NCBI GenBank assembly: GCA_964573185.1
Contig: CAZNIQ010000001.1
Location: 7,861-14,811 of the forward strand
Length of the DNA stretch: 6,951 nt
From: Candidatus Woesearchaeota archaeon
GTDB taxonomy: Archaea > Nanobdellota > Nanobdellia > Nanobdellales > CAZNIQ01
Direction of reading: 5' to 3'
The notes under the pieces are model-generated. The model was not told where the DNA came from. It ran no database searches and worked only from the letters and a program-made list of their open reading frames with translations. Numbering within the stretch: position 1 is the first letter of the stretch; the number at the start of each line of letters is the position of its first letter. Below are positions 1,491 through 6,951 of this stretch, piece after piece. The translations under genes and the position numbers were made by a program.

Positions 1491-2354
1491 AGCAATTGTT
1501 TCAATTATTAATTTTGCAGCAAAGTTCTCACAGAATTCCTGAGGATATAGCTCAACAACGTCAAAGGCTATCAAATCCACAAAATCTTTTATTTCTTTTA
1601 TGATTTTAAAATAGTGGAAAGGTCTTATTCCAAAAGGTTCTAGCCAATGTCCACAGCCGGTATCAAAAACATCTAGATCTATTGAAATATAAACTTTTTT
1701 CTCTTTAATTTTTTCTCTTATTTTTTCAATAACATTATTTATATTATCCCAAATTTCATAAGGTGTAAAATATAGTATTTTATTTTCTTCTAAGAATTCT
1801 TTTTCTCTGAAAGACCAGTTTGAGATTCCAATGAAGATTACATTTTCTGGTTCAATTATTCTTTCCTTTATTAAATAATACATAAAGCTTTGATAATTTA
1901 CATAAGGGTCTGGCTCACAATCCGGGTGGGCATCGAAATATAATAAAGCAAAATCATGGTTTTCTTTCATTAATTTCAAAATCGGATACGTTATCGAATG
2001 GTCTCCACCAAGGAATACGTACTTCTTATCTTTTCTATAAATTTTCTTTATCTCTTGATAAATTCTTTCATATAATTCTTCTAAATTTTTAATATCTTCC
2101 AATTCCAAATCACCATAATCAAAAATTTCTTCATAATTAACTTTTCCAAATATGGGGTCAAAAATTCTATAGGAAGCATCTCTAATAGCTTCCGGACCTT
2201 CTAAATAATTTTTAACTTTAGATAAGCTTCCTAATTCAGAAGGTATCCCAACTATAATCCATTTGGCTTTTTCAAAGGATTCTGCTTGGGCGTGTGCGAA
2301 CATTAGATATCTAGGGCTTGCATATATAAACATTATATCTTGGATTTTCCCCAA
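1476..2354 (-). CDS. Ureohydrolase family protein (agmatinase/arginase-like)
   Basis: The family signature motifs occur in the correct order: FLGGDHSITYP, YFDAHPD and SIDLDVFD (Mn-ligand His/Asp clusters). The start is uncertain. The annotated ATG at 2354 overlaps the upstream gene by 44 nt, and in-frame ATGs at 2333 and 2303 are alternatives. The 3' end overlaps the convergent gene by 15 nt. Confidence 0.85.
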   Translation of the reverse strand: MGKIQDIMFIYASPRYLMFAHAQAESFEKAKWIIVGIPSELGSLSKVKNYLEGPEAIRDASYRIFDPIFGKVNYEEIFDYGDLELEDIKNLEELYERIYQEIKKIYRKDKKYVFLGGDHSITYPILKLMKENHDFALLYFDAHPDCEPDPYVNYQSFMYYLIKERIIEPENVIFIGISNWSFREKEFLEENKILYFTPYEIWDNINNVIEKIREKIKEKKVYISIDLDVFDTGCGHWLEPFGIRPFHYFKIIKEIKDFVDLIAFDVVELYPQEFCENFAAKLIIETIALFNK

Positions 2355-3928: not shown

Positions 3929-5719
3929 ATGGAAAGAATCGCTATATTCAATTGGCAATGCCCAAATTGTGGTGGTTCCATTTCTAATGATCGTTTAGAA
4001 ATCTATGCTCCTTGTGAAAAATGTTTGGATGTTCCCATTGAAAAATTAAGGGAATTATTTAATAAATTACCTAGAGAAGAATATCTTAAAACAATTGTAA
4101 AACTTTTAGAGGAAAGAGGAAAGTTAAAAGATTATAAAAAATTATATGAATTGGAATTAAAGGTAAAGGAATTTGAGGAATTCTTTAAAAAAGCTGTCGG
4201 GTCTAAACCCTGGTCTGCTCAAAGAACCTGGTTTATAAGAGTCTTAAAAAAAGAATCCTTTTCTATAACAGCTCCAACAGGAATGGGAAAAACCACTTGG
4301 GGTTCGGTAATGGCTATATACTTAGCTCATAAGGAAGGAAAGAAATGCTATATTGTTTTACCTACAAGGATTTTGGTAAAACAGGTTTATGAAAGAATAC
4401 AGAAATTCCTAGAGAATTTAGGGATTCTAGATATAGAGGTTCTAGCTTATTTAAAAACTTCTCAAAAGTTAAAGAAGCAAATTCAGGAAGGAAAATTTGA
4501 TATTTTAATTACTTCTAACCAATTTTTAGCAAGGAATTTTGAAATCCTAAAAGACAAACATTTTGGTTTTGTATTTGTAGATGATGTTGATGCTTTACTA
4601 AAAGCTTCTAAAAATATTGACAGAACTTTACAATTAATTGGTTTCAAAGAAGAGCATATTAACTTGGCTTGGGAAATTATTAAATTGAAATTACAAATAG
4701 CTAAAACAAAAGATCAAAAGAAAATTGAAGAACTTGCTAACAAGATTAAAGAACTAAAAGATAAGTTAGAAGAAGAGAAAAAGAAGTTAGATTTAGGTGT
4801 TTTAGTTTTATCCTCCGCTACAGGAAAAGCTAGGGGATTGAGAGTTAGATTATACAGAGAACTATTGAATTTTGAGATTGGAGCTTCGAAGGTTTCTATA
4901 AGAAATATAATTGATGTTTATAAATATCCTGAAAAAGATATAAAAGAAGAAGTTTTGGAATTAGTCAAAAAGCTTGAGGATGGTATTTTGATATTTGTAA
5001 CTACAGATCAAGGAAAGGATTTTGCAGTAGAACTTGCGGAATATCTTAAAAATCATGGAATAAAAGCGGAAGCTGCGATCGCAGGGAAAACTGATGTTAT
5101 AGAGAAATTTGCAAAGGAAGAATTAAATGTTCTCGTTGGAGTAGCCCATTACTACGGTACTATAGTTAGAGGATTAGATCTTCCACATAGGGTAAAATAT
5201 GCTATATTCACTGGAGTTCCAAGATTTAGATTTAGTGCTAAGGTTGAAGAAACGGATCCTAGAAGAATATTGCTATTATTAAGAACGTTATTAGATTTCT
5301 TACCTGAAGAATATAAGGAAGAAGCTGAAAAAGTATTTAGAAAACTTGCAGATAATCTCAAAAAAACAAGTCCCGCAGCTATTACAGAAGTTAAAAAAGC
5401 TATTGAGGAAAATAGGAAATTAGAAGGTTTTCTAGGATATTTACAGGAATTAACGTTAAGAGCTAAGGAAATTTGTAAAAAAGCGTTATCTGATGAAAGA
5501 GTGATAAAGAAAATAGAGGAATATCCATATTTAGCTTTAGAAAGAAAAGACGATACTTTATATATCTTAATTCCTGATGTAAAAACTTATATACAGGCTT
5601 CTGGAAGAACCTCAAGATTATATGCAGGAGGCATTACAAAAGGTTTGTCAATAGTTTTGGTAGATAACGAAAAATTGTTAAAAGGCTTGATGCAAGCTCT
5701 AAAGTGGATAGAGTATTAA
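3929..5719 (+). CDS. rgy: Reverse gyrase, N-terminal zinc-finger plus helicase-like half only (split reverse gyrase)
   Basis: There is an N-terminal zinc ribbon CPNC-x14-CEKC. The SF2 helicase motifs are present: APTGMGKTT (nt 4271-4297), DDVD (4580-4591), SSATG, VRGLDLP and QASGRTSR. The ORF ends at aa 596 (...LKWIEY*). No topoisomerase IA domain follows, and the next gene is convergent and overlaps the stop. Confidence 0.9.
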   Translation: MERIAIFNWQCPNCGGSISNDRLEIYAPCEKCLDVPIEKLRELFNKLPREEYLKTIVKLLEERGKLKDYKKLYELELKVKEFEEFFKKAVGSKPWSAQRTWFIRVLKKESFSITAPTGMGKTTWGSVMAIYLAHKEGKKCYIVLPTRILVKQVYERIQKFLENLGILDIEVLAYLKTSQKLKKQIQEGKFDILITSNQFLARNFEILKDKHFGFVFVDDVDALLKASKNIDRTLQLIGFKEEHINLAWEIIKLKLQIAKTKDQKKIEELANKIKELKDKLEEEKKKLDLGVLVLSSATGKARGLRVRLYRELLNFEIGASKVSIRNIIDVYKYPEKDIKEEVLELVKKLEDGILIFVTTDQGKDFAVELAEYLKNHGIKAEAAIAGKTDVIEKFAKEELNVLVGVAHYYGTIVRGLDLPHRVKYAIFTGVPRFRFSAKVEETDPRRILLLLRTLLDFLPEEYKEEAEKVFRKLADNLKKTSPAAITEVKKAIEENRKLEGFLGYLQELTLRAKEICKKALSDERVIKKIEEYPYLALERKDDTLYILIPDVKTYIQASGRTSRLYAGGITKGLSIVLVDNEKLLKGLMQALKWIEY

Positions 5720-6186
5720 AGTTTTTCTAAATAAAAGATTGCATAAAAATTTCTCCCTTTTCTTTTAATAAAAACATCTATAACTGCAAAATACTTAATA
5801 ATTTCGTTAACAAAATCTTGAGGATATATTCTTAATTTAGATTTCATTTCAGGAAATCCGAAGAGTTCGAATTCTATATAAGCTTTTCCACCCGGCTTTA
5901 AAACGTTGTATAAAGCGTTTAAGAACTGCTTATAGTTTTTATCTAAATTTTCAACATATACTAAATCCACTTTGTTTATAAAATTCTTGTACATATCTAG
6001 AAAAGATCCTTTAACATATACTTTATTTCCAAAAGTTCCAGCTTTTTTATCATTTATAAAATAGAATTTCTTATCAGTATATTTATTTGCAAACCTTTCT
6101 AATTTAAAACCATATATATCTAAAATTATTTTTGCTTCAGAGAGGTCATGAGTCATCATTTTCTCAGCTAAGGGTGAGTTCCTCAT
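5716..6186 (-). CDS. Small class I methyltransferase-fold-like protein with an atypical motif I (function uncertain)
   Basis: The order of motifs resembles a Rossmann methyltransferase: IILDIYGFK (degenerate GxGxG), YFIND (acidic end of beta2), VDLVYVENL and NVLKPGGKAYI. It shares a TTAA stop/stop overlap with the convergent reverse gyrase gene (5716-5719). Its first 16 codons coincide with a C/D-box-like module, so the real start could be ATG 6186, 6159 or 6156. Confidence 0.45.
   Translation of the reverse strand: MRNSPLAEKMMTHDLSEAKIILDIYGFKLERFANKYTDKKFYFINDKKAGTFGNKVYVKGSFLDMYKNFINKVDLVYVENLDKNYKQFLNALYNVLKPGGKAYIEFELFGFPEMKSKLRIYPQDFVNEIIKYFAVIDVFIKRKGRNFYAIFYLEKL
6137..6186 (-). ncRNA. 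Box C/D sRNA-like module overlapping the 5' end of CDS 5716..6186
   Basis: The minus strand reads ATGAGGA (C-like with one mismatch, 6186-6180), ACTCACCCTTAG (12 nt), CTGA (D', 6167-6164), GAAA, ATGATGA (C', 6159-6153), CTCATGACCTCT (12 nt), CTGA (D, 6140-6137). Both spacers are exactly 12 nt. The U5-to-G change in the C box would replace the U-U pair with a G-U pair. Confidence 0.5.
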
Positions 6187-6216
6187 TTAAAATTAAGATT
6201 AGTTTATAGATTTTTA
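6186..6216. promoter_or_regulatory. AT-rich spacer with putative back-to-back TATA-like elements
   Basis: On the plus strand, TTTAAAAT (6186-6193) is centred about 26 nt before the C box at 6217. On the minus strand, TTAAAAAT (6216-6209) is centred about 26 nt before position 6186, which is the ATG and C-like box. A further TTTATAGA/TCTATAAA element lies at 6203-6210. Confidence 0.4.
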
Positions 6217-6264
6217 ATGATGAGGCGTTTCCACTCTGATTATGATGATAGGTCCCATTGCTGA
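6217..6264 (+). ncRNA. Box C/D sRNA (canonical double-guide architecture)
   Basis: The plus strand reads ATGATGA (C, 6217-6223), GGCGTTTCCACT (12 nt), CTGA (D', 6236-6239), TT, ATGATGA (C', 6242-6248), TAGGTCCCATTG (12 nt), CTGA (D, 6261-6264). All four boxes match the consensus and both spacers are 12 nt. It lies in an intergenic GC-rich island. Confidence 0.85.
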
Positions 6265-6312
6265 TCAGCCCCGTGACGCTTCATCATTTTCAGCAGTACA
6301 GATCCTCATCAC
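6265..6312 (-). ncRNA. Box C/D sRNA embedded in the 3' end of CDS 6265..>6951
   Basis: The minus strand reads GTGATGA (C, 6312-6306), GGATCTGTACTG (12 nt), CTGA (D', 6293-6290), AA, ATGATGA (C', 6287-6281), AGCGTCACGGGG (12 nt), CTGA (D, 6268-6265). All boxes match the consensus and both spacers are 12 nt. Confidence 0.75.
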
Positions 6313-6951
6313 TTCTTTTAATGTATAAATGTTCTTTTTAAAATCACAAGACCTTAAATATTCAAAACCTGTAATATCTATAAATGCAATTTTTCCTTTT
6401 ATTTCTCTTAAAATGATTAAAAGCTCATTCAAATCTAAAAGAAACGCATAATTATTATATCTGTTGCAAACAAAATCTCTCTTAAGTATATCCAAATCTA
6501 TAGACACATATAGTTCGTTTGGAAGTTCTTTTAAAAAATTAATAACGTTTCCCCAATTACTTCTATCTTTTCTTATCAAAATATATTTATCAAAAGAATT
6601 CGTTTCAGGTTTAAGAAAGCCAACATAGAACATTTCTTTTACATTTGCCAATTTTTTAATAAATCTTGCAAAGCTTCCAGTGTTTATCCCTTTCATTAAA
6701 GAGTAATCATCTGGATGTTGATCTATATGTAAATAGTACTTCGGTTTTATTTTGATTAAAATAGCTAGAGTAATGAAATGTTTTTTATCTGAACCATAAA
6801 TGTAAAAATTATCTTCAGGTATTATTTTTGATATTTCGAGAATTTCATTTTCTGTATAATAAGGTTTGCTTGGAAGCTTAAGATCTACAATCTTATCAAA
6901 GTTAAAGTACTTCTTTAATTCCTCCGTTGCTTTATCTATATTGATTAACGC
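6265..6951 (-). CDS. Divergent ureohydrolase-fold paralog (5' partial, continues off the right edge)
   Basis: My translation of the minus strand shows the frame of ORF 6265..6696 stays open from 6696 up to nt 6951 (ALINIDKATEELKKYFNFDKIVDL...FYIYGSDKKHFITLAIL...YYLHIDQHPDDYSL-MKGINTG...). The motifs align with the 1476..2354 protein: GSDKKHFIT versus GGDHSIT, HIDQHPD versus FDAHPD, VSIDLDILKRD versus ISIDLDVFD, and IAFIDITGFEY versus IAFDVVELYP. Confidence 0.6.
   Translation of the reverse strand, partial: ALINIDKATEELKKYFNFDKIVDLKLPSKPYYTENEILEISKIIPEDNFYIYGSDKKHFITLAILIKIKPKYYLHIDQHPDDYSLMKGINTGSFARFIKKLANVKEMFYVGFLKPETNSFDKYILIRKDRSNWGNVINFLKELPNELYVSIDLDILKRDFVCNRYNNYAFLLDLNELLIILREIKGKIAFIDITGFEYLRSCDFKKNIYTLKEVMRICTAENDEASRG

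Follow-up and report, generated by a model that had tools for sequence, protein, structure and literature searches.

What are two guide RNA genes whose 3' ends touch on the DNA, two separate genes, one gene and its by-product, or the halves of a single device? The question is raised by a stretch of 6,951 nucleotides from Candidatus Woesearchaeota archaeon (contig CAZNIQ010000001.1, positions 7,861 to 14,811), hereafter called the window. A preliminary description had placed a canonical plus-strand and a canonical minus-strand C/D box sRNA tail to tail in this window, and a regex scan returned exactly two perfect C/D matches in its whole length, at exactly these coordinates:

6217-6264, plus strand: C/D box sRNA, found by the regex scan, Rfam and the N. 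equitans profile
Parts of the plus sRNA: C 6217-6223; D' guide 6224-6235; D' 6236-6239; C' 6242-6248; D guide 6249-6260; D 6261-6264
6312-6265, minus strand: C/D box sRNA, found by the regex scan, Rfam and the N. equitans profile
Parts of the minus sRNA: C 6312-6306; D' guide 6305-6294; D' 6293-6290; C' 6287-6281; D guide 6280-6269; D 6268-6265
6261-6268, both strands: abutting D boxes with a 0-nt spacer, palindrome CTGATCAG

The plus sRNA is laid out as ATGATGA / GGCGTTTCCACT / CTGA / TT / ATGATGA / TAGGTCCCATTG / CTGA, and the minus sRNA as GTGATGA / GGATCTGTACTG / CTGA / AA / ATGATGA / AGCGTCACGGGG / CTGA. In both RNAs the C box (AUGAUGA or GUGAUGA, for a consensus of RUGAUGA) and the D box (CUGA) are perfect, as are the D' box (CUGA) and the C' box (AUGAUGA), the 7-nt C' box being preceded by a 2-nt linker. 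The distance from D' to UGAUGA was 3 nt in each, 1 nt below the N. equitans consensus. The eight consensus boxes and four 12-nt guides of the preliminary description were both borne out by the scan, and the 3' ends were seen to touch at 6261-6268, as it had said, with zero spacer at an 8-bp palindrome of D boxes. A flanking G and C extend CTGATCAG to the 10-bp palindrome GCTGATCAGC. Zero spacing is the closest packing possible for two canonical CUGA D boxes. As an absolute minimum for sRNA genes it was rejected, for it holds only for two CUGA boxes, and another pair of the same host overlaps through a CAGA variant.

Chance origin of the C/D motif set was excluded. Arrangements with at most one box mismatch occurred in 0 of 400 first-order Markov windows versus four times in the real window, and the junction pattern was absent from all 200 shuffles. 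The sRNAs had a G+C content of 42-49%, compared with 28.6% for the window. Four independent assemblies agree on the junction, which was 100% identical in an ENA assembly (L033), in a JGI contig (L046) and in a Logan contig from another run (L080), and the palindrome is therefore not an assembly artefact. A profile (R1) derived from 25 sRNAs of Nanoarchaeum equitans that had been defined by experiment (Randau 2012 supplement) scored the two sRNAs at 20.7 and 20.5 bits, with E values of 3.7e-6 and 4.2e-6. Rfam gave sub-threshold C/D matches on both strands, led by snoPyro_CD (29.8 bits, E 0.0037) and sR5 (26.6 bits, E 0.0046). The generic snoPyro_CD model reached 29.8 and 22.8 bits for the two sRNAs against a gathering score of 45, and the gathering thresholds of sR5 (26.6 versus 40) and sR9 (25.9 versus 36) were likewise not attained. 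Scores of this size are no surprise, as each of these families is built around particular guides; the two sRNAs are non-members of the guide-specific families sR5, sR9 and snoPyro_CD. Inverted duplication of a single sRNA was considered as the source of the pair and rejected, guide identity between the two halves being 8/24, which is background.

The general build of both RNAs is that of the N. equitans sRNAs, which share the layout C-12 nt-D'-short linker-C'-12 nt-D without a terminal stem and likewise have TTTAAA box A promoters and genes overlapping mRNAs (Randau 2012, PMC3491384). The guides differ, however, and no two of the 26 sRNA genes in N. equitans abut, unlike the pair studied here.

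Of the two RNAs, the minus sRNA lies in protein-coding sequence:

6951-6265, minus strand: arginase-like ORF (230 aa in full), its 3' part in the window

The whole minus sRNA is in frame and constitutes the last 16 codons of this ORF, whose stop codon TGA (6267-6265) is formed by bases 2-4 of the minus D box. Only three homologues of the arginase-like protein were present in the protein database. In alignment A1, which comprised two homologues, homology stopped at ...TLKE, and the sRNA-encoded tail VMRICTAENDEASRG was not conserved. The ORF at 6265-6951 was very divergent in general (Pfam Arginase E 0.0018, below threshold); a second arginase-fold gene of the window, the agmatinase-like gene at 1476-2354 on the minus strand, matched Pfam Arginase with an E value of 4e-48.

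Sense overlap between an sRNA and a 3' ORF end, with the sRNA carrying the stop codon, is a published category (PMC6009581, PMC7994747). [quoted passage not shown] It differs from that class in two respects: it lies wholly inside the ORF, whereas there only the 5' part of the sRNA overlaps, and it carries the stop codon in the D box, whereas the C box is the most common location there.

These features could be taken to mean that one sRNA alone works, the other being a decaying copy, an antisense by-product or, in the case of the minus element, mere coding sequence for the arginase-like C terminus. The in-frame position of the minus element within the ORF agrees with this, as does its D' guide, which had no target (see below), and 61% of the guides in sense overlaps of 3' ORF ends have no predicted target (PMC6009581). 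Nevertheless, protein coding fails to explain perfect boxes over a peptide tail that is unconserved. Both elements, moreover, have perfect boxes, eight in total, and a promoter box at the correct distance, and both D guides match 23S rRNA. We consider a single working sRNA very unlikely. The evidence from promoters and targets is as follows.

6186-6191, plus strand: putative box A TTTAAA of the plus sRNA, beginning 31 nt upstream of the C box
6337-6342, minus strand: putative box A TTTAAA of the minus sRNA, beginning 30 nt upstream of the C box
6186-5716, minus strand: orphan 156-aa ORF, downstream of the sRNA cluster

In N. equitans promoters, TTTAAA is located ~26-27 nt upstream of start sites (PMC3491384). 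The window contained only 13 copies of the motif, and a TTTAAA beginning 29-32 nt upstream was present for only 0.77% of positions. This spacing makes a promoter of its own very probable for each sRNA, with transcription starting 1-4 nt ahead of the C box; for the plus sRNA, the start site is predicted near A6216. The minus box A falls within the arginase-like coding region, and the closest genome (L001), which has no sRNA at the homologous place, reads TTTAAG at the matching codons. The palindromic TTTAAA at 6186-6191 may also drive the 156-aa ORF on the minus strand, for which no homologue was found outside this strain. A promoter and terminator scan of bacterial type, inapplicable to archaeal promoters, yielded no match.

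Two further C/D sRNAs of the window bear on the targets:

3898-3843, minus strand: sR45-like C/D sRNA (Rfam RF01274), 42.3 bits, above the gathering score of 40
6186-6137, minus strand: third C/D sRNA candidate, c3, with one box mismatch; profile score 9.3 bits, E 0.015

Guide targets were searched in the 23S rRNA of the closest genome, L001 (79-93% protein identity), and in the E. coli rRNAs. A contiguous-run test was used; scoring with an end-mismatch penalty had undervalued the plus D guide. This guide formed 10 contiguous Watson-Crick pairs with nt 118-127 of L001 23S rRNA, the fifth position being covered, and 1 of 500 shuffles did equally well. Its predicted methylation site is 23S G121 in E. 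coli numbering. For the minus D guide, 11 of 12 positions paired with nt 2190-2201 of L001 23S rRNA (site CCCCGUGAAGCU); the 8-pair contiguous run was not significant, and p ~0.02 against shuffles was reached only under mismatch-tolerant scoring. The predicted site is 23S G2067 (E. coli numbering), in domain V, and directly adjoins the target of the sR45-like D guide. The latter formed 11 contiguous pairs with L001 23S rRNA, a result equalled by 3 of 500 shuffles. The plus D' guide paired weakly at nt 345-356 of L001 23S rRNA, near G298, and in all 12 positions (two of them G-U) at 294-305 of E. coli 23S rRNA, homology of the two sites being judged by eye; a target near G298 is suggestive only. 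The minus D' guide had no target in L001 23S rRNA or the E. coli rRNAs and is an orphan there. No guide had a site of at least 10 Watson-Crick pairs in any tRNA gene of the examined loci. The preliminary description had proposed predicting targets of all four guides in rRNA and tRNAs; both D guides have predicted targets in the 23S rRNA of the relative, and neither D' guide had a convincing one in that 23S rRNA or in the E. coli rRNAs.

Candidate c3 lies 30 nt from the pair and is laid out as ATGAGGA / ACTCACCCTTAG / CTGA / GAA(A) / ATGATGA / CTCATGACCTCT / CTGA, with two 12-nt guides and its mismatch in the C box (AUGAGGA). The 5' end of the orphan 156-aa ORF overlaps c3, and an alternative ATG lies within the C' box of c3. 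Like the embedding of the minus sRNA in the ORF, the promoter boxes and a second convergent pair of the host (see below), c3 is absent from the preliminary description. The c3 guides matched helices 90-92 of L001 23S rRNA ~30 nt apart, with the D guide pairing at 12 of 12 positions including three G-U pairs; the region of helices 90-92 is a known methylation hotspot (PMC4644070). The D' guide of the sR45-like sRNA, AGCCGAGGACAG, resembles the D' guide of N. equitans sRNA2, AGTCGAGGACAA, and no other sRNA of the window has a clear counterpart in N. equitans.

The shared junction leaves the question of how the transcripts end. No intrinsic-terminator-like site or T-run was found between the genes, nor any terminator-like site in 6050-6450, and the junction lacks the G+C-rich stem-loop followed by a T-run that defines an intrinsic or bidirectional terminator. 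The nearest T-runs lie beyond it:

6287-6290, plus strand: first T4 run past the plus sRNA, antisense of the minus D'-C' linker, 23 nt beyond the junction
6316-6319, plus strand: T4 run, candidate oligo-T stop for read-through
6335-6339, plus strand: T5 run, candidate oligo-T stop for read-through
6192-6189, minus strand: first T4 run past the minus sRNA, inside the plus promoter box, 73 nt beyond the junction

Minus-strand read-through thus crosses the whole antisense of the plus sRNA before reaching the T4 run at 6192-6189. The earlier claim that there is no terminator and that read-through is antisense to the partner agrees with the lack of any T-run or terminator-like hairpin between the genes; with no terminator there, the primary transcripts should carry antisense of the partner gene. 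In the model of archaeal C/D sRNA maturation of Tripp et al. 2017, as summarised in PMC7994747, the flanks are dispensable, box motifs and sRNP assembly define the mature RNA, and the assembled sRNP shields the sRNA body while the termini are trimmed. The model fits the locus, and the 3' ends of the two sRNAs are most likely set by RNP-protected trimming, in line with what the preliminary description had inferred. Coupled expression of the two sRNAs, which had also been raised, is pure speculation.

A 96-nt read-through RNA would fold into a hairpin of -34.9 kcal/mol (plus) or -37.3 kcal/mol (minus), with z-scores of -5.0 and -4.5, and none of 200 shuffles was as good. Each box in this hairpin pairs with the antisense of the box of the partner. 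Such a fold allows the pair to be read as one module, in which the read-through hairpin or the two RNPs would serve as a bidirectional transcript end or insulator, stabilising the 3' end of the arginase-like mRNA or coupling the levels of the guides. The strength of the fold speaks for this, as do the position of the ORF stop codon at the apex of the hairpin and the occurrence of close convergent pairs far above random placement, four of them in one Desulfurococcales MAG and two in the host. However, the hairpin arises automatically because two RNAs of identical box consensus and geometry stand tail to tail, and read-through folds in other convergent pairs had z-scores from -0.9 to -6.4 without a conserved geometry; it is not taken as a sign of selected structure. 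The guides are not mutually complementary, no T-run follows the palindrome, no terminator-like site is present, and the other pairs have spacers of 2-8 nt or a 5-nt overlap, so that no fixed junction is conserved. A joint module is accordingly an unlikely reading of the locus, and two separate guide genes remain the preferred one.

The preliminary description had not recognised the tail-to-tail fusion as a described architecture. This needs correction, as a Pyrobaculum pair with a 1-bp spacer is published and three more exact CTGATCAG fusions were found in this work. In Pyrobaculum aerophilum, sR113a and sR08 are convergent with a 1-bp spacer, an arrangement called 'highly unusual', and have reads for both; in several species sR34 and sR40 also converge, 16 nt apart (Lui et al. 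2018, PMC6009581). The present pair shares with sR113a/sR08 the convergent C/D sRNA genes with essentially no gap and, like it, consists of two complete opposite-strand C/D genes, the 3' ends here being 0 nt apart. It differs in having a 0-bp spacer with the exact CTGATCAG, other guides, an unrelated lineage and one partner in an ORF. In a Thermococcus sp. (L024), the curated sR36 (Rfam RF01124) stands tail to tail with a C/D sRNA and the model boundaries abut at 486/487; unlike in the host pair, there are 4 nt between the D boxes and no D-box palindrome.

To place the architecture more widely, 185,579 species genomes, a collection without the host genome, were scanned with the pattern C'-N12-CTGA-N0-12-TCAG-N12-anti-C'. 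The resulting counts are lower bounds, since the strict pattern (perfect C', 12-nt D guides) missed the published Pyrobaculum pair. Among the 24 loci retrieved, 15 were bacterial chance matches and nine were archaeal. The archaeal loci had C/D boxes on both strands and spacers of 2-8 nt. Desulfurococcales contributed four, all from a single MAG, and a Thermoproteales MAG another two; one each came from Njordarchaeota and from Thermococcus, the latter with sR36 as a partner. The four convergent pairs of the Desulfurococcales MAG JAMOOB01 (L008, L013, L018, L025) had spacers of 3-8 nt, far above random placement. A metagenome scan for the exact fused junction retrieved 44 loci, four of which were real C/D pairs: the host pair (L046) and three unrelated zero-spacer pairs (L042, L064 and L068) with different guides and 40-55% G+C. 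Two of the three unrelated pairs sit between convergent protein genes. On the unrelated contig of L064, at least five C/D sRNAs are densely clustered at 1385-2556, and the two members of its zero-spacer pair have an identical D'-linker-C' segment, CTGAGAAGTGATGA, and D-guide 7-mers TTCTTGG and TTCTCGG; this similarity suggests that the L064 pair arose by inverted duplication.

The host has a second convergent pair of its own. On L046, where the window coordinate equals 10990 minus the L046 coordinate, six more host sRNAs are found ~2.7 kb from the pair and ~2 kb past the end of the window. Two of them, at 1910-1956 (+) and 1999-1952 (-), converge with a 5-nt overlap in which CTGA and CAGA share TCTGA. 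They belong to a trio at L046 1910-2048 in which three interlocked sRNA genes follow a zig-zag, first a convergent overlap and then a head-to-head contact where the C boxes of the minus gene and the second plus gene overlap in the palindrome TCTTCATGAAGA; there is no space for a separate promoter of the middle gene. The other three sRNAs lie at L046 1016-1148 and 1833-1881. Two form a divergent pair ~36 nt apart, and the D box CTGA of the third runs into the ATG of the downstream ORF (CTGATG).

The zero-spacer fusion is thus one point on a continuum that runs from a 5-nt overlap to 8 nt and has several independent origins. The architecture is rare and not unique, and the guide RNAs belong to a known kind. 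A more general proposition, that tail-to-tail C/D pairs between a 5-nt overlap and 8 nt are a selected design of compact archaeal genomes, in which the nascent sRNP or the read-through hairpin would define the transcript end of the opposing gene and of the upstream mRNA, replace oligo-T terminators and tie guide levels together, appears to us doubtful.

The surroundings of the pair bear on the nature of the host and on a further alternative:

3929-5719, plus strand: N-terminal helicase half of a split reverse gyrase

A stand-alone reverse gyrase N-half of ~575-596 aa was present in the host and in the relatives L028, L029 and L031, a split also seen in N. equitans and Nanopusillaceae, and the best named homologues of similar length were from Nanopusillaceae. 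The split gene points to a nanoarchaeote-like hyperthermophile as host. The 3' ends of the reverse gyrase N-half and the 156-aa ORF overlap by 4 nt (5716-5719), another sign of extreme packing. The sR45-like sRNA lies just upstream of the reverse gyrase N-half and the sRNA cluster ~400 nt downstream of it. In N. equitans, the reverse gyrase N-half gene NEQ434 lies between sRNA23 and sRNA24 (PMC3491384), so that sRNAs flank the split N-half in both organisms. In the closest relative, a different sRNA lies just upstream of the reverse gyrase N-half, in opposite orientation, and tRNAs follow the gene. The reverse-gyrase homologue neighbourhoods L028-L032 carry other sRNAs without these two, and no diverged orthologue of the sRNA pair was found among the arginase-like homologues, in L001 or in these neighbourhoods.

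In L001, whose arginase-like protein has 79% identity, the RuBisCO and arginase-like genes are still adjacent, and at 10600-10700 the gene for ribosomal protein L15 converges on the arginase-like tail and overlaps it, no sRNA being present there. Downstream of the arginase-like gene, L001 has a ribosomal protein operon, whereas the host has the sRNA cluster and the reverse gyrase. By this comparison of gene order, the sRNA cluster is located at a rearrangement breakpoint, exactly at the arginase-like 3' end. Randau proposed that C/D sRNAs mark or mediate rearrangements (PMC3491384), and the position of the breakpoint is compatible with this proposal and is no proof of it.

A synteny break of this kind versus the closest genome might also be left by a mobile or duplicated palindromic element, either a MITE-like repeat derived from an sRNA or an inverted duplication of one sRNA. 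Mobility has been proposed for the N. equitans sRNAs, which are neighbours of split genes (PMC3491384), MITE-like sRNA elements are known in Pyrobaculum (PMC6009581), and the L064 pair has signs of inverted duplication. The host pair, on the other hand, has no terminal repeats past the boxes, and neither the loci of relatives nor the host sequence, over a contiguous ~11.5 kb, contained a second copy. An element of this type is therefore extremely improbable here.

Taken together, the locus most probably comprises two box C/D guide-RNA genes, separate and both functional, that belong to a nanoarchaeote-like hyperthermophile and lie as close together as CUGA boxes allow. The build of the pair and its departure from chance, the distances of the promoter boxes, the pairing with 23S rRNA, the position in the ORF and the occurrence of similar pairs elsewhere are shown by the results above; expression, RNP assembly, trimming and methylation we infer as follows. 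Each gene would be transcribed from its own TTTAAA box, starting ~1-4 nt before the C box, and the minus sRNA may in addition be excised from the 3' end of the arginase-like mRNA. L7Ae, whose gene was found in the L001 locus of the relative, would bind the C/D kink-turn and the C'/D' kink-loop, followed by assembly of Nop5 and fibrillarin. The 12-nt guides would then direct 2'-O-methylation of rRNA, the D guides most likely at 23S G121 and G2067 (E. coli numbering). Primary transcripts would extend across the partner gene in antisense as far as T-runs 23-75 nt further along, and trimming up to the border of the RNA covered by protein would yield the mature 3' ends. For the zero spacer as such, genome compaction is the best reading, and not a device.

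The RNAs themselves are ordinary in kind, and the four guides add to the poorly charted repertoire of nanoarchaeal methylation guides. The pair also provides a natural test of 3'-end formation in archaeal C/D sRNAs. Because the sequence downstream of each gene is the partner gene read backwards, none of it is free for a signal; should both RNAs prove stable, their 3' ends must be fixed by nothing other than the box motifs and protection by protein. Abutting or overlapping pairs occur across several archaeal phyla and twice in this host, which raises the question of whether they are a tolerated by-product of compaction or a favoured arrangement. The locus thereby prompts a census of the spacing and orientation of sRNA genes, which would be able to tell the two apart.
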